Shown here piece after piece: positions 5,401 to 64,000 of a DNA stretch of 64,000 nucleotides. A program made the position numbers and the translations under genes. A model generated the notes under the pieces. That model worked only from the letters and a program-made list of their open reading frames with translations, was not told the DNA's origin and searched no databases. How positions within the stretch are numbered: position 1 is the first letter of the stretch; every line of letters starts with the position of its first letter. Source of the stretch: Atopobium sp. (GTDB lineage Bacteria > Actinomycetota > Coriobacteriia > Coriobacteriales > Atopobiaceae); contig JAIJTS010000003.1 of assembly GCA_022732885.1 (NCBI GenBank), positions 44,205 to 108,204 on the forward strand. The letters are read 5' to 3'.

Positions 5401-6831
5401 ACGGTCAATAGCGCGCTTTGCGCCCTTGATATTTTCTACCTTGCGGAGCTCAACCAAACGACGCATGACAAATGGCTTGAAGAGCTCAAGTGCCATAGCA
5501 GATGGAAGACCGCACTGGTGCAGCTTCAGGTGTGGGTCAACAACAATAACGGAACGGCCAGAGTAGTCAACACGCTTACCCAGAAGGTTCTGACGGAAAC
5601 GACCTTGCTTACCCTTAAGAGCCTCAGCAAGAGACTTCAGAGGACGTCCACCACGACCAGTGACGGGACGACCACGGCGACCATTGTCAAACAAAGCGTC
5701 AACGGACTCCTGAAGCATGCGCTTCTCGTTGTTAACAATGATAGAAGGTGCCTCAAGGTCAAGCAGGCGCTTAAGACGATTGTTGCGGTTAATAACACGA
5801 CGATACAAATCGTTTAAGTCGGAAGCTGCAAAACGGCCACCATCAAGCTGAACCATAGGACGAAGATCAGGTGGAATAACTGGTACAACGTCAAGAATCA
5901 TGTTAGCTGGATCGTTGCCACCCTTAAGGAAAGCGTCAACAATCTCAAGGCGTTTAATAGCCTTCTCGCGCTTTTGCTTCTGAGCATCCTCATTGGCGAT
6001 AATAGCGCGGAGCTCCTTGGCCTCTTTCTCAAGGTCAATGTTGGAGAGAAGGTCGCGGACAGCCTCTGCACCCATGCCGCCCTTGAAGTAGATGCCATAG
6101 TAGCGCTTAAGCTCGGAGAACAGACCCTCATCGGAGATGAGCTCTCTAGTCTCAAGCTGCATGAACTTCTCGAAAGCCTCACGACGAAGTGTCTTCTCTT
6201 CCTCGTACTCTTCCTCAAGATCGGCAACGCCTGCGCGAATCTCATCCTCAGAAAGAGGCTCAAAATCGCCAAACTCGTCATCTTGTGGCTGGCCCTGCTC
6301 ACGAAGGCGTGCGATCTGATCGTCACGCTCTGCATCGAGCTCTTCAAGGTCTGCTGCAAGCTCCTCACGAAGATCGTCTACGTCAGCCTCACGTGCCTCA
6401 GTGTCAACACTGGTGATTACGTAAGATGCAAAGTAGAGGACTTTCTCGAGGTCCTTGCTCTTGATATCAAGAAGACGTGCCAGAGGGAAGCTGGTTGGAC
6501 TCTTGAAGTACCAAATGTGGCTTACAGGAGCAGCAAGCTCGATGTGGCCCATGCGGTCACGACGAACCTTTGCGGTGGTTACTTCAACACCGCAGCGCTC
6601 GCAGGTAATGCCCTTGAAGCGAATGCCTTTGTACTTACCGCAGGCGCACTCCCAGTCCCTTACAGGTCCAAAGATCTTCTCGCAGAAAAGGCCGTCCTTT
6701 TCTGGCTTAAGGGTACGGTAGTTGATGGTCTCAGGCTTCTTTACCTCGCCATAGGACCAACCGCGGATATCATCAGCAGACGCTAGAGAAATTTTAATAG
6801 CGTCAAATTCAGTGGAATCGAAATCTGCCAC
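2404..6831 (-). CDS. rpoC: DNA-directed RNA polymerase subunit beta' with C-terminal HhH/acidic extension
   Basis: 1475 aa. N-terminus [68 protein letters not shown] and zinc-finger Cys motif. Conserved NADFDGD. Immediately downstream of rpoB. Confidence 0.97.
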
Positions 6832-6836
6832 AGTCG

Positions 6837-9800
6837 CTACTCCTTATCGGTGGTCGCGTCGCCTACAAGTGCGGATGCACCCTCAGCGTCTTGGGACAGG
6901 TCGGAAGCGGTTACCTCAGTAAAGCCAAGGTCGTTGAGGATCTCAACAGCGTTCTTCTCCTCAGGATCTGTGACCTTTGCGGTATTAGCACGCTTACGAT
7001 AGGAGATTGGCTCAATGTCAAGTGCCAGGGAGCGAATCTCTTTGACCAGAACCTTGAAGGACTCAGGAATTCCTGCAGTAGGAATGTTCTCGCCCTTAAC
7101 AATGGACTCATAGGTCTTAACACGGCCGTTGGTATCGTCAGACTTAACGGTGAGAATCTCCTGGAGGACGTTAGCAGCACCGTATGCATACAGTGCCCAA
7201 ACCTCCATCTCACCAAAGCGCTGACCACCAAACTGTGCCTTACCACCCAGAGGCTGCTGGGTAACAAGAGAGTAAGGACCAGTTGAACGTGCGTGGATCT
7301 TATCGTCAACCATGTGACCGAGCTTCAGGATGTAAGAGACGCCAACGGTAATTGGGCTCTTGAATGCCTCGCCGGTACGACCATCGTAGAGGGTAGTCTT
7401 ACCACGCTCGTTGAGCTGTGGAACAAACTCCTCACGCATGTCCTCGCCGTACTCTTTGAGAGCCTTGTTGATCATGTTGATATTGGTGCGGCGAACAATC
7501 TCTGCAACGGACTCATCAGTAGCACCGTCAAAGAGTGGTGTTGCAACAGGAATTGGGCCTTCAACGTAACGCTTAGAATCTGCGTCATCGTCATCCCAAC
7601 CATGTGCAGCGCCCCAACCAAGGTGGCACTCAAGCAGCTGACCAACGTTCATACGAGAAGGAACGCCCAGTGGGTCGAGAATAACGTCTACTGGGGTACC
7701 GTCTGCCATGTAAGGCATGTCCTCAACAGGGAGAACCTTACAAATAACACCCTTGTTACCGTGACGACCAGCAATCTTATCGCCTTGCTGGATCTTTCTA
7801 CGCTGAGCAACAAAGACGCGGACCAGGTCATTTACTCCTGGAGGCAGGTCGTCTCCAGCCTCACGGCTGAAGCGGACAACGTCAACAACGCGGCCATAGG
7901 AGCCGTGTGGCATCTTAAGGGAAGTATCACGAACGTCGTGTGCCTTAGCACCAAAGATTGCGCGAAGCAGGCGCTCTTCTGCGGTCAGAGCGGTCTCACC
8001 CTTAGGAGTGACCTTACCAACCAGAATATCGCCAGGGCCAACCTCAGCGCCGATGCGGATGATACCGTCATCATCGAGGTTTGCGAGCATGTCCTCACCA
8101 AGGTTAGGAATCTCGCGGGTAATCTCCTCAGCACCAAGCTTGGTGTCACGAGCATCAATCTCGTGACGAGAAATGTTAACGGAGGTCAGAAGGTCTTCCT
8201 GAACAACACGCTCGGAGACGATAATACCGTCCTCGTAGTTGTAGCCTTCCCATGGCATGTAAGCAACGGTAAGGTTTGCACCAAGTGCCAGCTCAGAGTG
8301 ATCGACAGATGGGCCATCTGCGATTGGCTGACCCTTCTCAACCTGCTGTCCAACAGTAACAATTGGACGGTGGTTGATGCAGGTAGACTGGTTAGAGCGC
8401 TCGTACTTAGGAAGATCGTAGCGCTGAGAACCGTGCTCATCGGAGTAGATGACAACGTGAGCTGCGTCTACCTCGGTGACCTCGCCTGCAAACTCTGCGC
8501 AAATAAGCTCGCCAGAGTCCTGAGCTGCGCGGCCCTCCATGCCAGTTCCAACATAAGGAGCGTGGGACTGAATCAGAGGCACTGCCTGACGCTGCATGTT
8601 TGCACCCATGAGGGTACGCTTTGCATCGTCGTGCTCAAGGAATGGAATGAGGTTAGCTGCGACGGAGAGAAGCTGACGTGGAGAAACATCCATGTAGTCA
8701 ACGTCCTCAACAGGAACCTGTGCAGGTGCACCGAAGGAACCGTCGAAGTCGCGAGTACGTGCAATAACACGGTCTGCATTTACAACCTTGCCGTCTGCGT
8801 CAACCTCAACAAACTTCTTAGACTTAGGGTCAATTGGGGTATTAGCAGGAGCAATAATGTGATTCTCCTCCTCGTCTGCAGTCATCCAAACGATGTCGTC
8901 AGAAACAACGCCACCTGTAACCTTACGATAAGGAGCTTCAATAAAGCCGTACTCATTTACGTGAGCATACAGTGCCAAGGAGCCGATAAGACCAATGTTT
9001 GGTCCCTCAGGAGTCTCGATTGGGCACATACGGGAGTAGTGCGAGTTGTGAACGTCGCGGACTGCGGTAGGAACGTTGGTACGACGGCTGGAGCCGGACT
9101 TGTGTCCTGCAAGACCGCCAGGTCCCAGAGCAGAAAGACGACGCTTGTGAGTCAAACCAGCAAGTGGGTTTGCCTGGTCCATGAACTGTGAAAGCTGAGA
9201 AGAACCGAAGAACTCCTTGATTGCAGCAACAATTGGACGGATGTTGATCAGAGACTGTGGAGTGATGTCGTCTGCGTCCTGAGATGCCATGCGCTCACGG
9301 ACAACACGCTCCATACGGCTCATACCAATGCGGAACTGGTTCTGGACCAGCTCACCAACGGTACGAACGCGGCGGTTGCCAAAGTGGTCAATGTCATCAA
9401 GGTGCTTAGACTCATCACCTGCGTGCACTGCAAGAAGATACTTTAGAGCTGCGACGATATCCTCTTTGGTAAGGACACGTACGTCTGCAGGAATCTCTTC
9501 CTCAAGCTTCTTGTTAATCTTGTAACGACCAACGCGAGCAAGGTCATAGCGCTGCTCATTGAAGAAGAGGCCGTCAAGCAGAGAACGGGCAGAGTCAACA
9601 GTTGGTGGCTCGCCTGGACGCTGACGACGATAAATCTCGATAAGAGCATCCTCACGTGTAGTAGCAACATCACGCTCAAGTGTGTTGCGAACAACATCGG
9701 AATCACCAAGGAGCGAGAGAATCTCGTCATCGGTAACAGCGATGCCAAGTGCACGGAGGAAGACAGTAGCGCTCTGGCGACGCTTGCGGTCAATAGAGAC

Positions 9801-21203: not shown

Positions 21204-22529
21204 ATGGATATGGCTAACAGATATAACTCCTTTAAATTTTCAAAATACAATTCCTTCGTTGAACATGATGATAATTTATATATCTACAATTCATTCACTG
21301 GTGGATTGTTAGAAGTTGACAAAACTTTGAAAGATTATTTCAAAGCAAAAAAATTCGACAATCAATTATCAAGTTCGATTAAAGCGTTATCCGACGAAAC
21401 ATCGGATAATCTACTGTCAGGCGGAATTCTAGTAGACAGCTCTATTGACGAAACAGAAGCACTTATCTGTTCATCCCAAATACATCGATTTGCAACAGAT
21501 AATCTAACTTTAACAATTGCTCCTACCACTTATTGTAACTTTAGGTGTCCTTACTGTTTTGAAAATATTAGAAATCAAACATCAATGTCAGAAGAAACGA
21601 TTGCCCAAATACCTCGATTTATTAAAAGTAACTTCCCTGATTTGAAGGCACTTCAAATTGTTTGGTATGGTGGAGAACCACTACTCGAGTTAGATAAAAT
21701 TTCATTATTGACCAGCAAGCTAATAAATAATGATTATTACTTGCAACCAGCTTCAATAGTAACGAATGGATATCTGCTAAATGAACAAATTGCACACAAA
21801 CTTGTTGACCTAGGTATTAACAACGCTCAAGTCACAATTGACGGTTCAAGAAATGATCATAATTTACGCAGAATTCCAGCGAATGGCTCACCAACTTTTG
21901 ACCGTATACTTAAAAATATTCAGTCTTGTTCTAATTTGCTCAACATTACAATTAGAATCAATGCCGATAAGACTAATGTTAAGCATGCGGATGAGTTATT
22001 GGAAGACCTTGAAAAAGCTGGTTTAAAAGATGTCGTTTCAATAAGTTTATCGCCAGTAACTGATTACACTGAAAAGAATAATGATTTGGGAGTATGTTTT
22101 TCATCTTCCCAATTTGCTGATGAAGAGTACATCTTCTATAAAAAGGCGGTACAAAAAGGATTTGATGTCGTAGGTAGTCTATTGCGTCAAAGGCAAATTT
22201 GTGGAGCAATTTCCTACAACTCTTATGTAATTGACCCTCATGGTGATCTTTATAAATGTTGGGATTCAATAGGAAATATAGATGAGAAAGTGGGAACCAT
22301 CTATGATTCCATACAGCTAAATACCAATCTTTGCAAATGGCTTACATACAATCCGTATAAGAAAAATTGTATTAACTGTAAAGTCCTTCCCATGTGTAAT
22401 GGTGGTTGCCCAAATCAATTCATCCAAACGGGAAGACTTGGGTGTTGTAGTAGTTTTTATAATCTCAACAAAAAACTAGAGTTGATTTCCTATGTGCTTA
22501 ATAATAATGAAGGTGATTCGAATGAGTAA
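21204..22529 (+). CDS. Radical SAM / SPASM-domain peptide-modifying enzyme (sactipeptide/ranthipeptide-maturase-like, anSME superfamily)
   Basis: 441 aa. CNFRCPYC (CxxxCxxC) after a ~115-aa N-terminal extension (YIYNSFTGGLLEVD, RRE-like). WYGGEPLL glycine-rich SAM motif. C-terminal SPASM Cys cluster (CGAISYNSYVIDPHGDLYKCWD...CINCKVLPMCNGGCPNQ). Confidence 0.85.
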   Translation: MDMANRYNSFKFSKYNSFVEHDDNLYIYNSFTGGLLEVDKTLKDYFKAKKFDNQLSSSIKALSDETSDNLLSGGILVDSSIDETEALICSSQIHRFATDNLTLTIAPTTYCNFRCPYCFENIRNQTSMSEETIAQIPRFIKSNFPDLKALQIVWYGGEPLLELDKISLLTSKLINNDYYLQPASIVTNGYLLNEQIAHKLVDLGINNAQVTIDGSRNDHNLRRIPANGSPTFDRILKNIQSCSNLLNITIRINADKTNVKHADELLEDLEKAGLKDVVSISLSPVTDYTEKNNDLGVCFSSSQFADEEYIFYKKAVQKGFDVVGSLLRQRQICGAISYNSYVIDPHGDLYKCWDSIGNIDEKVGTIYDSIQLNTNLCKWLTYNPYKKNCINCKVLPMCNGGCPNQFIQTGRLGCCSSFYNLNKKLELISYVLNNNEGDSNE

Positions 22530-24162
22530 GTTTTTTAACATTATCCGCTACTGTATATCTACCATTCTGGATAAGGGCAGTCTTGCGATTTTTCTCTTTC
22601 TGTCATTCTTTGTCACAGCGCTTATGGTGATCCAACCGCTTCTTGTTGGATTTGTAATTAATCTTTTTATTTCAGGAACAACTTGGAGCGAGATACTTTT
22701 CTATTGCGCCATAGTTGCCGCACTAGGAATCCTCATTGCCGGCTGCTCCTATCTTGCTAAAACACGGTATTGTCAGTTACAGGTTGATTCTGCGTTTACT
22801 ATTGAGCGACAGCTGATTGACAAGATTCAACATGCAGATTCATCGTTTTTCTCGTCATATGATTCTGGTCATTATCGTCAGACAGTAAATAATGATGCTA
22901 ATGACGTTTCGATTTTTATACTTACACAATGTATGAGCTTTGTAACAACTATGGTCTCTGTCTTAGGCACACTGGCAATTATTTTATATCTGAACCCATT
23001 AACCGCTCTTGTAACAGTTGTTCTGTTGTTGGTGAGTTTTATTATCTATAAGCAAATCCAAGCTGCGGCCTATAAAAGATACAGAGAATCCAAAGAACTA
23101 AGATCTCAATATGGATCTATTGAGCTTTCCCAATTCACAGACGTAGATTTTATCAGGCGTCATTCTCTCTTTGAGCGTTTCTTTAATCAGCACTATGCCG
23201 TCAATCAAAAACTTCGTAGTGCCATTCATGAGCAGTACAAACTGGAATTTGGTGTACAGGAATTAAACAATGCTGTAATTGCCGTATTCCAAGCCATTGT
23301 CTTTATTACCTGTGCATATCAAATTTTCCTTGGAGCACTCCAGCCTGGCTATATTGCAACCATTTCAAGCTATTTTGTATCGCTCTTAGGTTCTATTACG
23401 CTTCTTATGGAATTTGGCATGGCTTATCAGAGTATTACGGTAAGTCTTAATCGAATTGAGCAGATTCTTGATTTACCTCAAGAGTCCGTTGGTAACATCA
23501 TTCCATCAGAGAACGTCAATCAAATTACCTGCACAAATGTATCTTTCTCTTATCCGCATACAAATAAAGTACTGATGAACAACTTGTCTTGCAGTTTTGC
23601 AAAAGGAAATATATACGCCATTACCGGTGGAAACGGTACCGGCAAATCAACATTTCTGAAACTCATTAACGGAGAGTGGTCTTCTCACCTATCGGGCACT
23701 ATTACTATTAACGAGGACTTACTAGCTCAAATTAATCAGTATGAACTCCGAAAAAATACTCTTGGATTTACCGAACAAGAGCCAAGCATTGTTGACGATA
23801 CAGTAAGAAATAATCTGACCCTACTCTGCAAAAAGCAACCAACAGATGAAGAGATAATCAACTATATCAAGCTGTTCAATCTGGAAAAATTGCTGCTTGG
23901 AGACGATCAAAATCTTGACGTTCGCCTGGGTGAACGAAGCTCTGCTATCTCTGGTGGAGAAAAGCAAAAGATTGCAATTATCCGCATGATGCTTATGAAT
24001 CCAAGTGTTATGTTGCTTGACGAGCCAACTTCTGCATTAGATCAAAAAAGTGTTGATATCCTTCTTAATCTTCTCAAGAAGGTCAAGCAGGACCACATCA
24101 TACTTCTCATATCTCATGACCCTAAAGTGGTGGAAGCAGCCGACCATATCGTAGAGCTGTAA
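22522..24162 (+). CDS. ABC transporter, fused permease/ATP-binding protein (type I exporter, no C39 peptidase domain)
   Basis: Six N-terminal TM helices, then NBD with Walker A GGNGTGKST, signature LSGGEKQKIAI, Walker B LLDEPTSALD. ATG at 22522 with GAAGGTGA RBS overlaps the rSAM stop by 8 nt. The ORF track gives upstream in-frame starts at 22492 and 22507. Confidence 0.85.
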   Translation: MSKFFNIIRYCISTILDKGSLAIFLFLSFFVTALMVIQPLLVGFVINLFISGTTWSEILFYCAIVAALGILIAGCSYLAKTRYCQLQVDSAFTIERQLIDKIQHADSSFFSSYDSGHYRQTVNNDANDVSIFILTQCMSFVTTMVSVLGTLAIILYLNPLTALVTVVLLLVSFIIYKQIQAAAYKRYRESKELRSQYGSIELSQFTDVDFIRRHSLFERFFNQHYAVNQKLRSAIHEQYKLEFGVQELNNAVIAVFQAIVFITCAYQIFLGALQPGYIATISSYFVSLLGSITLLMEFGMAYQSITVSLNRIEQILDLPQESVGNIIPSENVNQITCTNVSFSYPHTNKVLMNNLSCSFAKGNIYAITGGNGTGKSTFLKLINGEWSSHLSGTITINEDLLAQINQYELRKNTLGFTEQEPSIVDDTVRNNLTLLCKKQPTDEEIINYIKLFNLEKLLLGDDQNLDVRLGERSSAISGGEKQKIAIIRMMLMNPSVMLLDEPTSALDQKSVDILLNLLKKVKQDHIILLISHDPKVVEAADHIVEL

Positions 24163-54718: not shown

Positions 54719-56194
54719 ATGGACAAAAGATTATGGAACGAATCAGGGTTTTTCGATATCCCTAATTATGTACAGAACTTAACGGATTTAGCTGGCTGGT
54801 TCCTTACAACAACTAATTCCTGGTCTGGGCATTTTGTTGAACTACACGATTTTTGCGACTACATCGACGATAACGTAAGCTTATTCGACACGCCGTTTGA
54901 TATACCTCATTATCAAATTCCTGGAGTGCTTGAAAAATTTGCTTGTTTATTTAAGTCTGAAATATGCGAACAAGAAAATGCTTATAACTATCAAAAAATT
55001 CTTGATAAATACGGCGTAGACATTATAAATGACGCCGAGTCACTTTCTAATATTAACGAGCTCGTTTTAAACAAAGAGTGTATCTATGCAATCATTACAA
55101 AATGCGTTACCGAAGATCCTAAAGGAGTTGGACTTCTCTATACCGCAGCAGAAAGTTCACTTCTTGATAGATGCCTATTCAAATTGGATGATATCAGGAG
55201 GATGTTTAGACCAAACTATAACTTTGGACGTAGAGAAAAGAAAACTACTCCGAGCACAGAAGGAGATTACTGGGATTACATAGAAACAAATAAACTCCCA
55301 GAATGGGTTTGGTGCCTGGTTGGAAATGTAATTGACGAACATCTTTTTGGAGAAGACCATACGATTGTCCATGGGACGCGACATTTTTCTCCTGGAACAA
55401 AAGTTTATTGTCTTCCAAATCAATGGGGCGATGGATACGAGAAAATCGGTGTGATAGGAAAGCAAAGAGGTTCACGAGAGCTCATTAGAATTGTAATGAG
55501 TAGAGAGTTGATTCATAACTTTAAGTGTCAAAAAGTTTTTTCACCATATGTCATTAAGCGTATGTATAGACGCAGCAACCAGGGTATGAACTTTAAGGGT
55601 TGGGGGCAATCAGAAGCGGAGCATGAGACCATCTTGTCACTACTTTCATGGTTTAATACAACTCCTGAAGAAGAAAAACAAAGGGCACTGCTACTTAATA
55701 GTTCACAACTATCATTTTTGATACATGTTGGCGATACGCCAAACCAGAAAATTCATTTGAGAATTGAACGACACAGTCGCAGAGATGATTGTTGTGGTGC
55801 TGGGTGGTATGGATTCTATAGAATTGGTGAGAAACCAGAACAGTCTATTGGTCTCCTTGATTGGTATGGATACTGGCCAGATGATGTGTCCTACGAAGAA
55901 TGTAAGTCAAACTACAAACCATCGTGTGAATTATTAGGTGGATTTTTAGATGCCGGAATTCTTAACTGGAAGAATACCTATGAGTCTATTCCAACTAATG
56001 GTAGACCTCCATTTACGTGGGAATTTGAGGCGATCTCGGAGCATGGCAGTCTATCGAATGCTGGACATAATACATACCCAGAGAACTTTCCATCAGTTAT
56101 GAGACTTCTGACAACATGGGGCTTTCCAAAGATTTGGAATTCAACCAGTAATGTACCTGATGCATTTCTTGGTTTTATGCGAGAACAAAAATAA
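54719..56194 (+). CDS. Hypothetical protein (491 aa, Cys/Trp-rich, no recognisable domain)
   Basis: Long clean ORF, about 40% GC. No signal peptide or TM. No motifs I can assign. Confidence 0.6.
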   Translation: MDKRLWNESGFFDIPNYVQNLTDLAGWFLTTTNSWSGHFVELHDFCDYIDDNVSLFDTPFDIPHYQIPGVLEKFACLFKSEICEQENAYNYQKILDKYGVDIINDAESLSNINELVLNKECIYAIITKCVTEDPKGVGLLYTAAESSLLDRCLFKLDDIRRMFRPNYNFGRREKKTTPSTEGDYWDYIETNKLPEWVWCLVGNVIDEHLFGEDHTIVHGTRHFSPGTKVYCLPNQWGDGYEKIGVIGKQRGSRELIRIVMSRELIHNFKCQKVFSPYVIKRMYRRSNQGMNFKGWGQSEAEHETILSLLSWFNTTPEEEKQRALLLNSSQLSFLIHVGDTPNQKIHLRIERHSRRDDCCGAGWYGFYRIGEKPEQSIGLLDWYGYWPDDVSYEECKSNYKPSCELLGGFLDAGILNWKNTYESIPTNGRPPFTWEFEAISEHGSLSNAGHNTYPENFPSVMRLLTTWGFPKIWNSTSNVPDAFLGFMREQK

Positions 56195-56332
56195 ATCTCA
56201 GGCCCCGCTCTCGCCCACCTTCACAACTCCATCCCTACCGTTCGCGAAAAATGTCAGCTTTGGTGAACAAGTGGCAAATCCACGTATCTAGCAGAGATAT
56301 AATCGCAGGTAAACAACGGATGGAGGACTGTC

Positions 56333-57099
56333 ATGAAGATGCACCTCATTGAGCCCAACGCTTGCACCCAGACCACGCCTACCGTATTGCTGATTCATCC
56401 CATGCTTTCTTCGGCAGAGGGAATGAAGACAGTTCTTGTGAACAATATGGGCGACGACCTGCGCTATCTAGTCCCAGATCTTGCTGCCCACGGAGAAGAA
56501 GACGCAAAAGAATATGTTCGGCGTCCCAAGAAGCAGTGCAGATTCATGACTGGCTGCTGAAACACAACATAACCCATCTCTCCCTGGGTTTTGGCGCGTC
56601 CCTTGGCGGCGTAGTTCTATCCGAGCTCCTCAAGTTCCCCGATTTAGTCTTTGACCACCTCTTCTTTGAGGGAACAAGCTTCTGGACAGGAGGATTTCTT
56701 GCCTCCGCGCTTGAGTTTGTACTCAAGAAAGTATTTCTTGCCAAGCACCGCAAAGCTATTGCAGACCCCGAACTTTCCATACAAAAGATGGAACAACTTT
56801 ACGGAAAAGTTGCAGCTAAACCTATGTCAGAGCACTTTATTGCGATGAGTGACCAAAGCATCCAGAACATCATCCACGACTGCAGCAACGTTGACCTTCC
56901 CACCCTTAGCCCCGACGTACAACGCCGCTGCATCTTCACGTATGGCGAGAAGGACTTTGACTTGAAACGTGCAAGGCAGGTTCTGCCCAAAGTCTATCCC
57001 GAGGCCACGCTTACTATCTGGCAGGGCTATGACCACTGCGAACGCATGACCAGCGATTCAGCGGCGTATGGTCAAATGCTCAGAGAACTTGTGATTTAG
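56333..57099 (+). pseudogene. Alpha/beta hydrolase with an internal frameshift near 56516-56520 (two ORFs 56333-56560 and 56362-57099)
   Basis: N-terminal part (MKMHLIEP...VLLIHPMLSS...) is in frame 2. Lipase box GFGASLGG and the remainder are in frame 1. A one-base shift after ...EYV joins them. Core-like GC (~52%). Confidence 0.6.
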
Positions 57100-57158
57100 A
57101 GCACGAGACTAATCACTCCTTGAGAAGCGATACGAAAGAACATTTCAGTCTTTTTGAA

Positions 57159-57200
57159 CAACGCAAATGCAACGCAAATTTTTGCGTTGCATTTGCGTTG
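57159..57200. promoter_or_regulatory. Perfect 20-bp inverted repeat (caacgcaaatgcaacgcaaa-tt-tttgcgttgcatttgcgttg)
   Basis: Read directly. Lies between the hydrolase pseudogene and the AlbA_2-family gene. Could be a bidirectional terminator or operator. Confidence 0.5.
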
Positions 57201-57241
57201 CATAGTTCCTATACTATTAACTTACCGAGAAGGGAGCTCCT

Positions 57242-58495
57242 ATGCGAGAAACTACTGATGTCGAATTTAAATCTGATATAAATAGTTCATCATTTTTAAA
57301 AACTGTAAGCGCTTATGCTAACTTTTGTACTGGAGTCATCATATTCGGAATTGATGATAGCGGTACTGTTGTTGGTCTTAAAAATCCCACTCACGCCTGC
57401 TTAGATATTGAAAATAAAATCAATGACTGTATCTCTCCACGACCACAGTATTCACTTGAAATAAATGAAAGTCAAAAAACTATCGTACTTCATGTTAAAG
57501 AAAGTCCAAATAAACCATATTTCTATAAAGGTAAAGCTTACAGAAGAAGTGATAGTTCTACTGTTGAAGTTGACAGAATTGAGCTGGGAAGGCTAATACT
57601 AGCTGGTGAAAATCTTACATATGACCAATTGCCTTCTCGAAATCAAGAACTCACCTTTGAGACTCTATCTCAAAAACTTTATAACATTCTTGATATATCA
57701 ACTATTAATAATGATATTCTGAAAACCCTTGGTCTTATAAAAAATGAAACGTACAACCATGCTGCTGCTCTTCTTGCCGATTCTAATTCATACCCAGGAG
57801 TAGACATCGTACAGTTTGGATCGTCTATTAATAAAATGCTCGATCGATCAACAACAGAGAGAGTATCTATTTTAACTCAATTCGAAACAGCTATAGAGAA
57901 ATTTAAACTACATCTATGCTTTGAACAAATTGAAGGAACTGAAAGGAAAACTGTTGAGAAAATTCCTCAAGAAGCATTTCGTGAGGCCATTGCCAATGCA
58001 TTAATACATAGAACCTGGGATATAGAAGCACGCATACGAATAAGTATATTCTCCGACCGCGTAGAAATCATATCCCCAGGCGGTCTCCCCTCTGGTCTTT
58101 CGGAAGAAGAATACCTTAGTGGACGTGTCTCAGTTCTCAGAAATCCTATCTTGGCAGAAGTATTTTATCGTCTTGGATATATCGAAAAGTTTGGTACTGG
58201 TGTTTTTCGTATAAAGGAAGCGTATTTTACTAAATTAGAAAAGCCTCGATTCGAAATTAACAAAAACTCTGTCACAGTGATATTACCAATTCTTGGATCA
58301 CAGTCAGGGATTTCCAACGATGAAACATTTCTTTTGGAAAAGATGTCCTCAGGACGTCGTTATTCACGCAAAGAACTCGATAATTTAATGGGATTCGAGA
58401 AGACCAAAACAATTCGTCTTCTTGGTTCTCTTATCAACAAGGGTCTTGTTATTGCTGAAGGAGCAAATAGAGCAAGGCGTTACATTCGTGCGTGA
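57242..58495 (+). CDS. AlbA_2 (Schlafen-like) DNA-binding domain + HATPase_c_4 (RecG C-terminal-like) + wHTH protein; putative ATP-dependent DNA-binding regulator
   Basis: N-terminal TTDVEFKSDINSSSFLKTVSAYANFCTGVIIFGIDDSGTVVGL (AlbA_2). Central FREAIANALIHRTWD...RISIFSDRVEIISPGGLP (HATPase_c_4). ~36% GC. Confidence 0.7.
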   Translation: MRETTDVEFKSDINSSSFLKTVSAYANFCTGVIIFGIDDSGTVVGLKNPTHACLDIENKINDCISPRPQYSLEINESQKTIVLHVKESPNKPYFYKGKAYRRSDSSTVEVDRIELGRLILAGENLTYDQLPSRNQELTFETLSQKLYNILDISTINNDILKTLGLIKNETYNHAAALLADSNSYPGVDIVQFGSSINKMLDRSTTERVSILTQFETAIEKFKLHLCFEQIEGTERKTVEKIPQEAFREAIANALIHRTWDIEARIRISIFSDRVEIISPGGLPSGLSEEEYLSGRVSVLRNPILAEVFYRLGYIEKFGTGVFRIKEAYFTKLEKPRFEINKNSVTVILPILGSQSGISNDETFLLEKMSSGRRYSRKELDNLMGFEKTKTIRLLGSLINKGLVIAEGANRARRYIRA

Positions 58496-59011
58496 TACAA
58501 CACAATAAATATATTTAACATTGATTACAAAGCATAATCCTTAAGACAACTAATTGTGTTGAAAGAATGAACTTAACTAAATAATAACTACGTACAATGT
58601 ATCAATTTATTTTAAGATTTGAAAAAATAATTACGTAAGTTGATAAAGTATAAATCACAACCGCCCGCATAGCGGGTGGTTTGTTCTTAGGGTATAACCC
58701 TAAGTATACTTGCCCAGGACTCAAGTCCTTTGACCTTCACTTCGTTCAGGTCACAATAGCAATGTTCCACCGGTAGCCAATTAAACTGGCTAGCTAGTGA
58801 AATTATTTACTGAAGGGATTTTCATATTCCTTCAAGTTCAACTTATCCTGAGCTATATCAACGTTTTCCTACTCTCGAATATATTTCTTATTTTACGATA
58901 TGATGGTCCGAGCTTATAAGTTTCAACTATGGTAGCAACATAGCTCTATCAATTTATAAATAAAGATTAAAGACCTCCTGGAAATAGGTTCGCTTACACA
59001 ACCTTGATGCG

Positions 59012-59044
59012 CGTAATATCGTTATTGATAATAACGATATTACG
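59012..59044. promoter_or_regulatory. Perfect 15-bp inverted repeat with 3-nt spacer (cgtaatatcgttatt-gat-aataacgatattacg)
   Basis: In the 650-bp AT-rich spacer between two convergent genes. Likely terminator or protein-binding site. Confidence 0.45.
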
Positions 59045-59154
59045 AAATAGTCACACTCTTTTTGCAAAAAATTTGACACCATTAATTGAACGTAATCTTT
59101 TCGTAGCCTAGTTCCTATACTTTAAAAATAAAACTAGCAGCCCTTTAGAAGACT

Positions 59155-59757
59155 TTAAGAAATCACAAGGTCTTCCTTTATATGCTTACCTTGACTTATA
59201 CAATCATCTTTTTTATTTTTTCGTATTGTCCCTACCAAATAAGTCAGATAATGATTCAATTCATTGTAGTAAATATGGCCTATCTTAGCTTTATATTTAA
59301 AGAGCCATTCAATATCAGCATCTAAAGGATTTCTTTTCTGATATTCAGAATAATCCCAACCATCTATATCATATTCAGAAAGATGAGATTCTGGTTCTGA
59401 ACCATAAGATTTTGGAAAACGTTTCTTATATTCCTTTGTTAACCAACTTGTATTTTTACCATCATGCTCAATGAAATTATTAAAATCATTTATCGTTTCT
59501 TTTATCGTTAAGGGCTGACTTTGTATATAGTTTCTTAATGGAACGGATGGGATTAAGTTTTCTTCTCTCATCTTTTTTCTTATATATAGCATAAGTTCAA
59601 TTGTTGTAGAATCGTCTCCATATTTTCCACAATCATCTTCGAATCCTTCTCTTTTTTCAATTACTTTTTTATATAAAGGTTCAATTTCTTTCCACCCATC
59701 TTTTTCAAAGACTTTTTCAATCGTTTCTTGAAATTTGATTTCAGCGCTACTCGACAT
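59155..59757 (-). CDS. Hypothetical protein (200 aa, Lys/Glu-rich, soluble)
   Basis: Clean ORF at ~30% GC. Tandem with the upstream 229-aa gene. No domain recognised. Confidence 0.55.
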   Translation of the reverse strand: MSSSAEIKFQETIEKVFEKDGWKEIEPLYKKVIEKREGFEDDCGKYGDDSTTIELMLYIRKKMREENLIPSVPLRNYIQSQPLTIKETINDFNNFIEHDGKNTSWLTKEYKKRFPKSYGSEPESHLSEYDIDGWDYSEYQKRNPLDADIEWLFKYKAKIGHIYYNELNHYLTYLVGTIRKNKKDDCISQGKHIKEDLVIS

Positions 59758-59853
59758 ATTAACCCTCTACTTTCTATTTATATTAATCACATTACAAAAA
59801 ATGGATACACTTTATTTCATATGGAAAATAATCAATACAAAATCAAAAATCAA

Positions 59854-60543
59854 CTATTCCATACTCGAAATAGTTTGCTTTTCTTGATGATAATCTAGAA
59901 CACAACATTCTTCATTATTAAATGGACATATAGTCCACTGAGGGAACTCCCTACTACCATTATTTTGAACCAAACATTCAAATTTCACATGACAGGAATA
60001 TGTATATCCCCCATTTTTCCAATAAAGTTTGGTCATAAATATATATCCGTCTTTTTGGACATTTCCACTTTTGGGATTTATTGAATCATTATTGTAATCT
60101 TGATGATATGTTGGTCCTCCTAAGACAGAACGCCACCCTATAATATTACACGGTAACTTAGCTTTCTCCTTAGACAAAATATCTTTAGATTTCTCGTCTA
60201 TTGCTCCCATTCTTACTGAATAAGCATCATTATGACTAATATTCTCGACACTAAACTCGCACGCTAGTACACCATTCTGTACAGCATCTTTAGCGCACAT
60301 ATATGAATACGCATCATTAGAAAATTGAACTGTTTCAAGTTTTACTCGAAAGTTTGAGACATTTAAAAAAACTTCAATATTTTGAGATTCTTTAGCAATA
60401 TCATTTGCCTCTATGGCATGTTTATTTGCTTCTTCTGCAATTTTATTAGCAGTTTTGGAATTTTTATTAGCTTTAAAAGCCATTACAGCAGAAATAAGAC
60501 TAAACAATGAACTCAATGCTGCAATAATCGTATCAATCGACAT
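59854..60543 (-). CDS. Hypothetical membrane-anchored protein (229 aa, one N-terminal TM, 8 Cys)
   Basis: N-terminal helix IIAALSSLFSLISAVMAF, then a coiled-coil-like segment and a Cys-rich C-terminal domain. ~30% GC. Confidence 0.55.
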   Translation of the reverse strand: MSIDTIIAALSSLFSLISAVMAFKANKNSKTANKIAEEANKHAIEANDIAKESQNIEVFLNVSNFRVKLETVQFSNDAYSYMCAKDAVQNGVLACEFSVENISHNDAYSVRMGAIDEKSKDILSKEKAKLPCNIIGWRSVLGGPTYHQDYNNDSINPKSGNVQKDGYIFMTKLYWKNGGYTYSCHVKFECLVQNNGSREFPQWTICPFNNEECCVLDYHQEKQTISSME

Positions 60544-60672
60544 TCTTAGATTTCCCTTTTCATATCAATGTTCCTCAATTAGTTAAAACTATAAGCACAT
60601 TAAATATATACATCAGTTTACAAAAAAGAATTCTATATAATTCAACTAACTAGTAGTTCACATTGAATCGAA

Positions 60673-60993
60673 GTGATTACTATGGGGTATTCAATCGTAT
60701 TTTGGTCCTTAACCGCAATTCTTGGCATTTGGTCTCTTGTACTTCTATCTGGTCATGGTGCTATTTCAATTGCTGGATTTAACACAATGACTGAAGATGA
60801 AAAGAAAACAATTGACGAGAAAAAACTCTGTTTTGTAGCGGGTATTTGCACGCTTATAGCTGCGTTAGTACTCTTTTTCATGGCACTACTTGGTCCAAAT
60901 ATACCAAACACAACAGCAGTCATTGCGGGCAGTATTATTGCGATTGATGCGGTAGTAACGGTTTATATTGCAAACACAAAATGCAAAAAATAA
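60673..60993 (+). CDS. Small membrane protein, DUF3784-like (3 TM)
   Basis: 106 aa. Pattern TM-TM-NTMTEDEKKTIDEKKL-TM resembles DUF3784/SdpI-like small membrane proteins. Confidence 0.5.
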   Translation: MITMGYSIVFWSLTAILGIWSLVLLSGHGAISIAGFNTMTEDEKKTIDEKKLCFVAGICTLIAALVLFFMALLGPNIPNTTAVIAGSIIAIDAVVTVYIANTKCKK

Positions 60994-61101
60994 TAAAAGC
61001 CTGACGACAAAATACTTGAAGTTCTCATTACCTTTAGACAATAGCTCTTGTCAAAACAAATACAAAGCATCACCTCAAACTACTCGTCTCTTTCATCTCT
61101 C

Positions 61102-62025
61102 TTAAGACAAAGTCTGATCGCGCACATATACAAGTAACCGTACAAGCACAACAACACAAAGCCCTGCTGCAAGTACCGTTTCAACAGTAGCTATTCCGTC
61201 GAGCCATTGGAGAGGCTGGCCAAGTTTAACTAGATATGCAGCTGTTTGCTTGCACGCAATAGCGCTGATTACAAAGGGAAAAGTAAACGCGGCGTGACTG
61301 GGAAAGAATGGTTTAGTAAGACACCTGATGCACCATACAAGCGAAGCTACATAAATAATTGAAGCGATTGCCAGCATAACCAAAAGAAACGGCACGAACT
61401 TTGGCGTAATAGATTGAATATATCCTGCAATACAAAGACTTGTTGGAGCTGCATAAATACAAGCGAGCGACTCAGCAGAATCAGGCACCGGCCCATATTT
61501 AACATACCGTACGCTCACTACTATAAAAAGCACCACAAGGCAGATAAATCCAAACCAAAATGCAAGCGTACCAACACTGGTTTCAAAATTGACCGCCGGC
61601 GCTGTAACACTGGCAACAACAATACCTACATACACAATGAACCAGCTGGCGTGCACATTCTCCCAATTAAATTTTGCAATATATCGAGAAGTAAAGATAG
61701 CTATGCACAATATGTGTAACGCAATTCCTGCAAACCAAAATAATTGTGCTGCATCACCAATATCAGCCTTCATATACACCGAAATCAGCATAACTGCCAT
61801 CGGATATGTTGCAGCAACTGAAAGACCAATCGGATCAGAGAGCTCTCGCAATACAACTTTAGTCGACACAATAAATTTGAGGGTATAGAGAGCTAAAAGA
61901 GCAATAGAGATAATGCCACAGGCAAAATAAAAGGTCTCGAAAGAAGTCTTAAAAAGATTTCCAAGTGCTGCAAAACCTAATGCAACGCCACAAATAGCAA
62001 TGGGAACTTTTTGGACGTAGTTCAT
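61102..62025 (-). CDS. TDT-family (TehA/Mae1-like) anion transporter
   Basis: 307 aa, about 10 TM helices. Overall resemblance to tellurite-resistance/C4-dicarboxylate transporter family. Confidence 0.65.
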   Translation of the reverse strand: MNYVQKVPIAICGVALGFAALGNLFKTSFETFYFACGIISIALLALYTLKFIVSTKVVLRELSDPIGLSVAATYPMAVMLISVYMKADIGDAAQLFWFAGIALHILCIAIFTSRYIAKFNWENVHASWFIVYVGIVVASVTAPAVNFETSVGTLAFWFGFICLVVLFIVVSVRYVKYGPVPDSAESLACIYAAPTSLCIAGYIQSITPKFVPFLLVMLAIASIIYVASLVWCIRCLTKPFFPSHAAFTFPFVISAIACKQTAAYLVKLGQPLQWLDGIATVETVLAAGLCVVVLVRLLVYVRDQTLS

Positions 62026-62179
62026 AAGGATTCTTCTATCTGTTTAGGAAACTCTTTTTATTTCTTTCAATAATAGATATTTATTTTCATGAAAGCGAAC
62101 TCAGTAGCGGATATATTTCTATGCGTTGCGACAACAGCTAACAAAAAATCCGCTGATAGCGAGTTTGAAATTCTTATGG

Positions 62180-62226
62180 TCGCGGGGACAGGGATTTGAA
62201 CCTACGACCTTTGGGTTATGAGCAAA
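62180..62226 (-). other. tRNA 3'-half-like fragment (T-arm GGTTCAAATCC + acceptor + CCA), no complete cloverleaf
   Basis: Minus strand reads ...ggtcgtaggttcaaatccctgtccccgcgacca. No matching 5' acceptor strand, D-arm or anticodon arm upstream. Sits at the low-GC/high-GC junction. Confidence 0.4.
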
Positions 62227-62427
62227 TTAGGATAGAAGTTCCGTAAATTTTTTCACCTATCTCACCTGAGCATACTGTACTGATTAGGCGCTTTGTGCTT
62301 TTGCGTCTCCAACGTTTTGTAGAAATCTACTTCTTCTACATCTCCAGCTTCATTTTGGCAGTCCTTTCGTACGCTGACTCCGTCTCGCCTTGAGATCGGA
62401 TCCCCCAACACGAGGAGACAGACGGCC

Positions 62428-62781
62428 ATGAGAAAGAGCATTGACGAGAGGTCGCATGAGGCAATCAGCGCGAACCTGAAGCACAGGGACATCGAGGTCC
62501 TGGAGGAGAACTGGGCGCACGGCTCGGACGGCATCGACTTCATCGTCATGGACGACGAGGAGCTCATCTTCGTGGACACCGCCACCAAGTGCGGGGGCTT
62601 CGACGTGCCCCGTGAGGAGCCCGACCAGGAACGCTTCGAGCGCATCGCGGCAGCCTACCTCGCCGAATCCGAGGTGGAGGGCCTCGCCAGCATCCGCTAC
62701 GACATCGTGAGCCTGCTGGTGACGGGCTCGGAGAAGGCGCTCCTGCGCCACCACAAGAACGTCCTAAACGACGGGAGATGA
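62428..62781 (+). CDS. YraN/UPF0102-family (PD-(D/E)xK-like) small endonuclease-like protein
   Basis: 117 aa. GSDGIDFIVMDDEELIFVDTATKCGG...AAYL matches the UPF0102 pattern (GE.D.I...LVFVEVK.R). ~65% GC with strong GC3 bias. Confidence 0.55.
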   Translation: MRKSIDERSHEAISANLKHRDIEVLEENWAHGSDGIDFIVMDDEELIFVDTATKCGGFDVPREEPDQERFERIAAAYLAESEVEGLASIRYDIVSLLVTGSEKALLRHHKNVLNDGR

Positions 62782-62965: not shown

Positions 62966-63796
62966 TTAGCCAGGTAGCGGGAATTGAAAGCCGCAGTTAT
63001 TTACGAACTGGATAAGCTGAACAACAGCAGCAGCGAACTGTACCCCGCCGTTGACTCCTCGCAAGAAGCCAAGTGCGCTCTTGAGTACTCCTCGCTTAGG
63101 TTCCCCGCTTTCTATCTGCGCGCGAACAATCTCGGCATTATCGCGTACATCTTCAATTGTTTCGGCATCGTCAATTTCCGTCCCTGCCGCGCTAAGAATC
63201 GCATCAATCAATTTGTTCAGAGCTTGCTCGTCAATGCCGATGTTCTGAGTTGCGTTGATGGTTGAGCTGTCAGTCGCTTGGTTCATCTGCAGGTTGTTCA
63301 CGGACCCGAAATTGTTTGTCACTGAATCTCCGCCATCGAGTCCTATTTCGAATCCAATCATGGTCAGATGTTCGGTTATGTTCGCGATGAGGCGCCGTAC
63401 AACTTTGTCCAAGAAGCCTTTGTACATATCCGCGAATTTATTTCCACTCGCAAAGGTGTAGTAAAAATAGCTTCTACCGGAAATGTTCTGGACAATCATT
63501 TCCTTGAGGATGAGATACACTTCTGCGCTCTCTTCCTCGGGTATAGTGCTGAAATTGATGAGGGTAGTTCTAAGGCCCCCCGCTACCTCCCGGACGTCTT
63601 CTTCTGCATTGAAGCCCTCGGGGGTATGGTTATCAACGCAATCATCGAGATACGCTTTTACATCCGGCTCTGCTTCAATACGGTCAAGAAACCGTTTGAA
63701 AGGCGCTGGCGATTCGTCCCAATTCGATCGTAAAAGTATGTTCGCCTCGTGGTTGAAGCGATAGAGGGTCTTCTTAAAGGCGGTCTTATCGGTCAT
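62966..63796 (-). CDS. Hypothetical protein (276 aa)
   Basis: Clean ORF. Start overlaps the stop of the upstream zinc-ribbon ORF by 11 nt. Confidence 0.55.
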   Translation of the reverse strand: MTDKTAFKKTLYRFNHEANILLRSNWDESPAPFKRFLDRIEAEPDVKAYLDDCVDNHTPEGFNAEEDVREVAGGLRTTLINFSTIPEEESAEVYLILKEMIVQNISGRSYFYYTFASGNKFADMYKGFLDKVVRRLIANITEHLTMIGFEIGLDGGDSVTNNFGSVNNLQMNQATDSSTINATQNIGIDEQALNKLIDAILSAAGTEIDDAETIEDVRDNAEIVRAQIESGEPKRGVLKSALGFLRGVNGGVQFAAAVVQLIQFVNNCGFQFPLPG

Positions 63797-63968
63797 TGAA
63801 ATTGCTCACCCCGCATAACGGACATACGTACATCGACATTGAAAGGAGACGTGACACTTTCGACTGCTTTCCGCAGTGCTTGCAAGTCGTAATGGCAAGC
63901 GTATCTATGGAAGGCTGCAAGACGGGCTCGTCATCCGGTTTCGGCTGTTTGCCCGCCTTGAACGACAC
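63786..63968 (-). CDS. Small zinc-ribbon protein (CxxC...CxxC)
   Basis: 60 aa, CKHCGK...CPLCG. GTG start with AAGGAAAGG RBS. May extend beyond window end. Confidence 0.45.
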   Translation of the reverse strand: MSFKAGKQPKPDDEPVLQPSIDTLAITTCKHCGKQSKVSRLLSMSMYVCPLCGVSNFNDR

Positions 63969-64000
63969 GGCCTTTCCTTTAGTTCGTCTCTCGAGCTTCT

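Follow-up and report, generated by a model that had tools for sequence, protein, structure and literature searches.

What does the AT-rich DNA at 57.1–61.0 kb of the window (the whole 64,000-nt stretch of Atopobium sp. DNA analysed here) represent: one undescribed defence module, or several genes with separate histories? A sequence-only reading of this segment had described a gene with AlbA_2 and HATPase_c_4 domains (A), two tandem genes (C and B) and a DUF3784-like gene (D), and had proposed a candidate defence module. The coordinates of the four open reading frames and the 96-bp spacer between C and B were reproduced (Table 1), and Pfam matches agreed with the domain calls for A and D. The GC content of about 30% given for the segment fits B (29.5%) and C (32.5%) and is somewhat too low for A (36.3%) and D (37.7%); the A–B gap stands at 32.8%, against a whole-window mean of 47.7% and 50–55% in the adjoining core regions. 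Our preferred reading, to which we assign a probability of about 0.7, is that the segment is not a single system but the variable cargo bay at a recombination hotspot beside a conserved SLAC1/TehA-type gene. The host chromosome is of the oral Lancefieldella/Atopobium type (Coriobacteriia).

Table 1. Genes and sequence elements of the segment and its flanks, in window coordinates
Feature	Position	Strand	Size	Remarks
Alpha/beta-hydrolase-like flank gene 'G245'	56333–57099	+		Compared with the intact 263-aa L028 orthologue
Palindrome	57159–57178/57181–57200		20-nt arms	Arms 100% complementary; four copies of a ~10-mer (CAACGCAAAT)
Promoter-like site of A	57187–57215	+		−35 TTGCAT 57187–57192, 17-nt spacer, −10 TATACT 57210–57215
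Shine–Dalgarno (SD) sequence of A	57228–57235	+		GAAGGGAG
Gene A	57242–58495	+	417 aa	Open reading frame call
Six consecutive hairpins	58653–58892		240 nt	Seam between A block and B block
Terminator-like GC-rich hairpin	58659–58681			T-run on both strands; between convergent A and B
Palindrome	59012–59026/59030–59044		15-nt arms	Arms 100% complementary; within the 3′ flank carried along with B
Paralogue of A promoter segment (…TAGTTCCTATACT…)	59045–59130	+		Direct repeat; antisense into B 3′ end
Gene B	59155–59757	−	200 aa	Open reading frame call
Gene C	59854–60543	−	229 aa	Open reading frame call
Gene D	60673–60993	+	106 aa	Open reading frame call
SLAC1/TehA-type transporter gene	61102–62025	−		Conserved hotspot anchor
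PADLOC candidate system PDC-M14	62966–64000	−		2 kb from the segment

Comparison with sister genomes shows that the segment is a mosaic. The SLAC1 protein is 88–93% identical across related contigs, yet at least six different cargo layouts lie beside its gene. We regard the site as a defence-island-type hotspot because, at this same position, sister genomes carry Gabija (GajA, 5.1e-215, and GajB, 2.1e-201, in L. parvula contigs), a Tmn-like YobI NTPase (Walker A motif, two transmembrane helices, PADLOC Tmn match of 6.6e-30), IS elements or other small genes. The blocks come and go independently among these genomes, which bears out the accessory nature claimed for the segment, and blastn alignments place the seams between a block holding A and G245 (56217–58619; 94% identical to L028 and L040-42), an IS200-end element (58653–58892), a B block (58884–59859), a C cassette (approximately 59860–60568) and a backbone (60636–62079). 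On our preferred reading the five blocks have separate histories: gene A accompanied by a putative palindromic operator and a promoter of its own, a hairpin end probably orphaned from an IS200-type element, B between 5′ and 3′ flanks of its own, a tight cassette containing C alone and the DUF3784–SLAC1 backbone, with the cargo swapped as separate single-gene cassettes. Gene D (DUF3784, 3.7e-18), which encodes a small membrane protein, was rejected as a module member, since in many related genomes it accompanies SLAC1 as part of the backbone; in L006 it is a pseudogene.

The site shares with known defence islands and integration hotspots a conserved flank (SLAC1), variable low-GC cargo, known systems in sister genomes, and IS scars and pseudogenes. 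Its compositional anomaly (29–38% GC against 47.7%) is accompanied by the IS200-end-like element and by a flank gene, G245, that is apparently frameshifted, with its N terminus in the frame 56333–56560 and the remainder in the frame 56362–57099; in L021, an IS3-type transposase lies downstream of B. By contrast with those islands, the hotspot shows no evident integrase, tRNA or att site, and much of the cargo consists of uncharacterised genes. Homologous recombination in the shared flanks seems to be the route of cargo exchange. Within the window, the defence content consists only of the pSlfn-type gene A and the candidate PDC-M14, of which PDC-M14B occupies 62966–63796 (6.5e-158) and PDC-M14A is represented by its C terminus (63786–63968, 7.2e-12), the start of the gene being beyond the window end. 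Defence hotspots of oral Actinomycetota (Coriobacteriia) have been little studied, and here the shuffling of single-gene cassettes extends to Gabija, Tmn-like and Schlafen-type cargo.

Gene B encodes a cytosolic, mostly helical orphan protein with no hydrophobic segment (32 K + R and 37 D + E), modelled with AF2 at a pLDDT of 78.7 and a pTM of 0.82. As the sequence-only reading had supposed, neither B nor C has recognisable homology to a known family: searches of Pfam, NCBIfam, PHROG, PADLOC (E ≤ 0.1), PDB sequences and Foldseek returned no match for either protein, and the fold of B had none in PDB or BFVD. Clustered at 90% identity, the B family forms about 160 clusters, drawn from Gram-positive bacteria of the mouth and gut. 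From its invariant residues (H125, D148, E150, H161, E166 and H169), the likeliest role for B is that of a metal-dependent enzyme or sensor in the cytosol. In L. parvula contigs, B lies directly upstream of GajA/GajB, and in the mitis-group streptococci it follows BnzB-like and BnzA-like genes; B adjoins components of both Gabija and Bunzi, yet matches neither component model. The neighbours in that second phylum include BnzB (3.9e-61), a type I restriction endonuclease (2.2e-170) and a type IIG restriction–modification (R–M) protein (E = 0), and B is retained where Gabija or Bunzi gives way to type I or type IIG R–M. The gene that consistently accompanies B in Streptococcus encodes a SAP_new25-domain protein and is absent from the window. 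Scans of the B contexts L021-24 and L037-39 gave no recognised defence gene.

Gene C, the family of which is rare, encodes a protein whose membrane anchor is followed by a long A/N/K/E-rich helix and, at the C terminus, by a beta-sandwich containing conserved cysteines; one N-terminal transmembrane segment (residues 1–25) and eight cysteines bear out the membrane-anchored, Cys-rich character noted earlier. The K-rich stretch that follows the transmembrane segment suggests, by the positive-inside rule, that C is most likely membrane-tethered with its bulk facing the cytoplasm. In a clade of 60–67%-identical C proteins outside the window lineage, C lies 133 bp downstream of a gene for a 1,087-aa YobI-family NTPase, and this Tmn-like NTPase is present at every locus with a complete upstream gene (the contigs of L001 and L008 end within that gene, which is unannotated there). 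Tmn, however, has been described as a single-gene system, the window contains no Tmn gene and C has no NTPase motif. One distant relative of C adjoins ToxN and small serine recombinases within a mobilisable element.

These neighbourhoods raise the possibility, which we hold tentatively and at well under even odds, that B is a new family of single-gene anti-phage or defence-island accessory or regulatory proteins and that C is a second such family. If this is true, B would stand at defence-island edges in two phyla, beside Gabija in the Coriobacteriia and beside Bunzi-like and type I/IIG R–M genes in the mitis-group streptococci, and C would be a membrane-tethered partner or stand-alone cargo alongside Tmn-like NTPases and ToxN. 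Guilt by association makes both families candidates for new functions, anti-phage or island-associated, in bacteria of the human mouth, and B should be easy to test because it is common in mitis-group streptococci. The association comes from a few dozen sampled loci with much redundancy among them, and the neighbour counts carry no matched control for background defence-gene density.

C and B had been proposed to form a membrane sensor/effector or toxin–immunity pair. The two genes lie on the same strand, their 96-bp spacer holds no terminator-like hairpin, their order is kept in the close relatives L006 and L007 and each family is associated with defence islands, all of which would suit a functional two-gene module co-transcribed from a C promoter. 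In a profile search, however, B matched 35 loci and C matched 13, and only the window, L006 and L007 had both; the other 32 B loci and the other 10 C-family loci have one gene alone. C is missing from about 10 of 11 distinct B contexts; every context type except the shared C–B arrangement has B alone. The identities in L006 also differ (83% for C and 97.5% for B), indicating different histories, and a seam lies 5 bp past the C stop codon. Moreover, the 100 bp upstream of B recur in loci that lack C, so B brings its own upstream region. Sequence and fold searches revealed no toxin, effector or immunity domain in either protein. We therefore rejected the pair as a module, its adjacency being confined to the window lineage, which is essentially the outcome that the sequence-only reading had named as a refutation, and consider a functional C–B unit quite unlikely; the defence-type nature of the site stands, whereas the conserved two-gene module does not. 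B and C would instead be single genes carried as cargo independently of each other, from two uncharacterised families found repeatedly beside known anti-phage genes, and their adjacency should not be treated as an obligate pairing.

Two other explanations concern what such cargo might do. B, and perhaps C, could be orphan immunity or accessory proteins of polymorphic-toxin islands rather than anti-phage proteins. B is a small, soluble protein that diverges fast and has spread horizontally among oral taxa, a variable ADP-ribosylglycohydrolase lies downstream of it in mitis-group streptococci, and some B loci have tandem DUF443 paralogues in a layout typical of immunity arrays. We nevertheless think this unlikely: the B and C neighbourhoods listed contain no LXG, WXG100, T7SS or other toxin gene, no Pfam Imm family is matched (Imm41 at E = 7.7 in only 1 of 38 B members), and it is restriction, Bunzi-like and Gabija genes that are found immediately upstream. 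Alternatively, B, C and D could be lineage-specific genes with an ordinary cellular role, such as SLAC1-linked envelope or transport functions, their low GC content and variability reflecting relaxed constraint beside a recombination-prone site. B and DUF3784 do adjoin SLAC1 in many Lancefieldella-type contigs, because of which B may be a fast-evolving resident gene and not cargo; neither B nor C was found in phage and plasmid collections, and one distant C relative (L044) lies beside cell-envelope polysaccharide genes. Against this explanation, which we judge very unlikely, B also occurs in Streptococcus, Granulicatella and Lachnospira in very different, SLAC1-free neighbourhoods; its alleles diverge as much within one genus (56–84% identity) as across phyla (53–59%), when SLAC1 stays at about 90%; its GC content is 26–30% in every host, compared with 35–46% for the surrounding loci; and known defence genes recur as neighbours.

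We infer biochemical roles for A as well as for B and C. Gene A matches SLFN_AlbA_2 (PF04326, 1.3e-19, residues 3–110) and the GHKL-type HATPase_c_4 (PF13749, 1.1e-21, residues 263–348), and its C-terminal region (approximately residues 328–414) has sub-threshold matches to the winged-helix family HTH_27 (0.043), Lrs14 (0.0057) and Csa3 (0.024); it also matches PHROG 12156 (5e-48) and PDB 3lmm (4e-14). This domain order points to a bacterial Schlafen of the GHKL–HTH class, resembling the pSlfn HisKinase–HTH proteins (Perez Taboada et al. 2026, PMC13056530; also PMC13552941 and PMC12680541) in its AlbA_2/Slfn domain, its HATPase_c_4 domain and its putative C-terminal HTH-like region, and likewise standing alone as one gene amid variable, defence-rich surroundings. 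The architecture is not new: the pSlfn-HisKinase-HTH class, the second commonest among catalogued bacterial Schlafens, accounts for 19.2% of catalogued pSlfn (PMC13056530). The N terminus of A (E3-TTDV-E8-F-K10) carries an Ex4ExK stretch at the position of the published catalytic motif Ex4DxK (PMC13056530), the second acidic residue being Glu and not Asp. The link to defence that had been drawn from the AlbA_2 architecture is backed by PMC13056530 and by PMC12680541, which found bacterial AlbA_2 clades to be enriched near defence systems. However, the protective pSlfn have DUF262 or Ig-like fusions, or, in an Enterococcus protein, no known C-terminal domains, and neither of the two HisKinase-type genes assayed was among them (PMC13056530). 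If A acts in defence at all, it would probably do so as a triggered Schlafen-type RNase; it could also be mainly a transcription regulator.

Relatives of A are found in phages and streptococcal phage satellites. The A cassette (approximately 57133–58502) is missing from the otherwise syntenic L043, so A behaves as a single-gene indel or cassette. The palindrome at 57159–57200 belongs to this cassette, with which it is kept at 95% in L028 and L040-42. It overlaps the −35 region of A, the −35 element falling within the right arm, and is a putative operator at which A would probably be autoregulated through its putative HTH. The promoter-like site is a tentative assignment, read from the sequence itself; a consensus promoter scan did not return it because its −35 element matches at only 3 of 6 positions.

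The two strong palindromes reported earlier are both perfect, and each is far beyond chance in 6.5 kb, but they are not a pair of borders around the whole segment, one belonging to the A cassette and the other to the 3′ flank of B. The latter (59012–59044) is also present in L021-24 and L006, within their B blocks, and with substitutions in L037. Between A and B, the hairpin element at 58653–58892 is 90% identical to L037:4673–4913, which directly follows an IS200-like Y1 transposase gene. It is probably the orphan end of an IS200/IS605-type element; it matches no Rfam family, and its DNA fold has a z score of −5.84, with none of 200 shuffles equally stable. Finally, alignment of 57135–57245 against the 3′ flanks of B identified the paralogue of the A promoter segment next to the second palindrome.

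The place of the AT-rich segment around genes A to D was compared across related genomes. The SLAC1/TehA-type transporter gene (SLAC1) and a 491-aa ORF (54719–56194) flank the segment, and their products are 88–93% identical to proteins of Lancefieldella parvula and uncultured Atopobium sp. contigs, and equally to those of many human oral metagenome contigs. Because of these identities, we infer that the window probably derives from an oral Lancefieldella/Atopobium-type Coriobacteriia genome. SLAC1 is kept across related contigs, and the genes after it vary. In the window and two fetched loci (L006 and L007), the order is the DUF3784 gene (reverse), C, B, a gap and A (reverse). In L. parvula contigs, B is followed by GajA and GajB; another group carries a 177-aa gene, a 1,087-aa YobI-family NTPase, C and then PepF. 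Three further layouts begin with DUF3784: two small genes, B and an IS3-type transposase; an 84-aa gene, B, a 157–165-aa gene and PepF; and B, a 375–378-aa protein, TM2 and zinc-ribbon proteins, A and a hydrolase-like gene. L043 has the last of these layouts without A. The YobI-family NTPase contains a Walker A motif and two TM helices and matches the PADLOC Tmn model (6.6e-30); Tmn has been described as an anti-phage transmembrane NTPase of the YobI family (PMC13001434). Within the window, the PADLOC candidate system PDC-M14 occupies 62966–64000, where a 276-aa gene matches PDC-M14B (6.5e-158) and an ORF extending beyond the window end matches the C terminus of PDC-M14A (7.2e-12). The SLAC1-adjacent site is thus a defence-island-type hotspot. 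A YraN/UPF0102-like gene lies at 62428–62781.

The segment itself is built as the sequence-only reading had described it. Its ORF positions matched ORF calling exactly, the C–B spacer is 96 bp, and the observation as a whole (ORFs, domains, GC content and palindromes) was confirmed. GC content is 29.5% in B, 32.5% in C, 32.8% in the A–B gap, 36.3% in A and 37.7% in D, against a window mean of 47.7%. The palindromes at 57159–57200 and 59012–59044 are perfect, with arms of 20 + 20 nt and 15 + 15 nt, respectively. No Rfam family reached its gathering score in the A–B gap, where a permissive scan returned sub-threshold noise only, and no tRNA gene that could serve as an integration target lies near the site. 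Counts from the consensus promoter/terminator scan were not above shuffled expectation, and the scan was uninformative except for a hairpin at 58659–58681.

Features of the segment and its homology blocks (window positions; L numbers denote fetched homologous loci)
Feature	Position	Strand	Remarks
Hydrolase-like gene + A block	56217–58619		94% identical to L028 and L040–42
Promoter-like site of A	57187–57192 (−35), 57210–57215 (−10)		TTGCAT, 17-nt spacer, TATACT; not listed by the consensus scan
Gene A	57242–58495	+	417 aa
Hairpin element	58653–58892		240 nt, six consecutive hairpins; 90% identical to L037:4673–4913
B block	58884–59859		82% identical to L037–39
Gene B	59155–59757	−	200 aa
C block	~59860–60568		common to C loci only
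Gene C	59854–60543	−	229 aa
Backbone block	60636–62079		DUF3784 + SLAC1
Gene D	60673–60993	+	106 aa; DUF3784 (Pfam, 3.7e-18)
SLAC1/TehA-like gene, next after D	61102–62025	−

Seams were located by blastn of window positions 56200–62300 against all fetched loci and are sharp throughout this interval. L043 aligns to 56217–57132 and 58503–58654 only, so A with its palindrome and promoter (~57133–58502) is a single-gene indel. The hairpin element folds as DNA into six hairpins (z = −5.84), and its counterpart in L037 directly follows an IS200-like Y1 transposase gene; the element, which lies where the A and B blocks meet, is probably an IS200/IS605-type end left as an orphan, with no transposase in the window. 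The match of L021–24 to the window (92%) starts at 58668. The seam between C and B falls 5 bp past the C stop codon, and loci that lack C share the 100 bp upstream of B. In L006, identity to the window is 83% for C, 97.5% for B and 99% for A, and these unequal values again indicate separate histories for the three genes.

The sequence-only reading had proposed that C and B may form a two-component sensor/effector or toxin–immunity pair. Profile HMMs for B and C, made from their alignments and run on six-frame translations of all fetched loci, found B in 35 loci and C in 13; the window, L006 and L007 are the only loci with both. Once redundancy is removed, about 11 context types of B remain, just one of which contains C, so the pair is not conserved elsewhere, the outcome that the proposal itself had named as its refutation. 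No terminator was found by the scan between C and B, so read-through from C into B is possible. An obligate C+B two-component system is nevertheless unlikely; the C–B ‘module’ is a lineage-specific juxtaposition. The idea of an accessory, defence-type segment stands in that the hotspot is real, but the site holds independently exchanged single-gene cassettes and not one module, with the DUF3784 gene D as backbone.

Gene A encodes the domains first assigned to it, SLFN_AlbA_2 (1.3e-19) and HATPase_c_4 (1.1e-21; both Pfam), and its C terminus gives sub-threshold winged-helix matches only. This architecture corresponds to the already catalogued prokaryotic Schlafen class pSlfn-HisKinase-HTH, which accounts for 19.2% of the 5,930 bacterial Schlafens catalogued (PMC13056530). 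The N terminus reads E3-x4-E8-x-K10, whereas the published catalytic Schlafen motif is Ex4DxK (PMC13056530). AlbA_2 clades of bacteria show enrichment in the vicinity of defence systems (PMC12680541), and some Schlafens protect through triggered tRNA cleavage (PMC13056530, PMC13552941). The fusions shown to be protective belong to classes other than that of A (PMC13056530), so that a role for A in defence is plausible, although unproven. Phages and streptococcal phage satellites carry relatives of A, and among solved structures the closest is that of an uncharacterised protein (3lmm). PADLOC matches of A to pAgo-associated ‘Aga’ models and to Csa3 span generic domains only and were rejected as evidence of system membership. 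The palindrome at 57159–57200 is made up of four 10-mer copies and overlaps the promoter-like site, an arrangement suggesting that A may be autoregulated through its C-terminal HTH. The B 3′ flank carries, at 59045–59130, a paralogue of the A promoter segment 57135–57245 (…TAGTTCCTATACT…); this copy points antisense into B, is kept in other B blocks and may serve as an antisense promoter or be a relic. The α/β-hydrolase-like gene beside A (56333–57099) occupies two reading frames in the window, through either a frameshift or a sequencing error, and is intact (255–263 aa) in L028 and L040–43.

As noted from sequence earlier, B and C lack recognisable homology: neither matched Pfam, NCBIfam, PHROGs or PADLOC. 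The remote-homology check, by profile searches against PDB sequences (nothing at E < 0.05) and Foldseek on AF2 models, gave no assignable match, nor did any family recur consistently when 38 B members and 16 C-family members were scanned permissively against Pfam. The sole matches from the family scans, DUF7497 (0.042) and IseA (0.039), were dismissed as noise-level.

The B family comprises ~160 clusters at 90% identity. Its members are ~200-aa stand-alone proteins without Pfam domains, as were all matches listed in a second profile search aimed at domain-fused distant relatives. Hosts include Streptococcus mitis, S. oralis, S. pseudopneumoniae, S. infantis, Granulicatella and Lancefieldella/Atopobium, and Lachnospira eligens has a relative at 31% identity. 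The GC content of B is 26–30% in all hosts. Lancefieldella-type alleles (56–84% identical to the window B) have diverged as far from it as streptococcal alleles (53–59%), while SLAC1 stays at ~90%. In the streptococcal and Granulicatella loci (L012–L016 and L026–L034), a SAP_new25-domain protein (205 aa, 2.7e-20) is always next downstream of streptococcal B. The upstream cargo varies: some loci have a homologue of BnzB (3.9e-61) accompanied by a weakly BnzA-like membrane protein, others a restriction enzyme of type I (2.2e-170) or a type IIG restriction–modification enzyme (E = 0). Bunzi is a validated system (bioRxiv 10.1101/2022.05.11.491447). Taken together, these observations identify B as a horizontally exchanged gene at defence-island edges in two phyla. 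A mobile-element origin was considered and rejected for B and C, neither of which occurs in IMG/VR viral contigs, GenBank phages or PLSDB plasmids. AF2 predicts the structure of B fairly confidently (pLDDT 78.7, pTM 0.82) as helical with one β-hairpin, and a Foldseek search of PDB and BFVD gave no match for it (best E 1.5). The family is strongly conserved, with a mean column identity of 58% in the alignment, and the invariant polar residues include H125, D148, E150, H161, N165, E166 and H169; this invariant His/Glu/Asp set suggests that B may perform metal-dependent chemistry. BnzA-like, BnzB and ~90-aa genes are the usual upstream neighbours of B in mitis-group streptococci, and some loci carry an ADP-ribosylglycohydrolase and DUF443 paralogue arrays further on.

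The C family is smaller, with 13 clusters by word-indexed search and 14 at E < 1e-10 by exhaustive profile search; its broad alignment was too diverse for use as a genome-scan query. All 14 are 210–245 aa, none is named, and they share a TM segment at the N terminus, a long helix bearing A/N/K/E repeats and a β-sandwich with conserved Cys. The AF2 model is of moderate quality (pLDDT 62.5), and CBM21, ApaG, GH2 Ig-like domains and the TMEM106B luminal domain were set aside as generic β-sandwich matches (E 0.05–0.5). A K-rich stretch just after the TM segment suggests, by the positive-inside rule, that the bulk of C may be cytoplasmic, and if so a picture of C as an extracellular sensor is doubtful. 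Outside the lineage of the window, C lies downstream of the Tmn-like NTPase in all loci with a complete upstream gene; in L001 and L008 the contig end truncates that gene, which is unannotated. A 28%-identical relative (L045/L046, 6965–9330) sits between a ToxN_toxin gene and two small serine recombinases, which have been proposed as defence-cargo markers (PMC13552941), in a mobilisable element that also encodes a MobL relaxase and a TraG-type coupling protein. Another relative adjoins polysaccharide genes. The AlbA_2 class of A was already catalogued; B and C are genuine orphan families with a suggestive defence-island association and are candidate defence genes.

A ~154-bp piece over the SLAC1 3′ end (61015–61168) has a second copy upstream of B in several loci, and in L040 the duplicates (6487–6640 and 7733–7886) bracket DUF3784 and a small gene. 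The arrangement resembles what an insertion would leave behind; the window, where C sits, lacks the second copy. Low-GC islands also occur elsewhere in the window, at 21204–24162 (a radical-SAM-like protein with a generic pVip match, 1e-13, then an ABC-type ATPase) and at 1085–2219 (a 213-aa orphan and a 127-aa winged-helix protein with a Csa3-like HTH).
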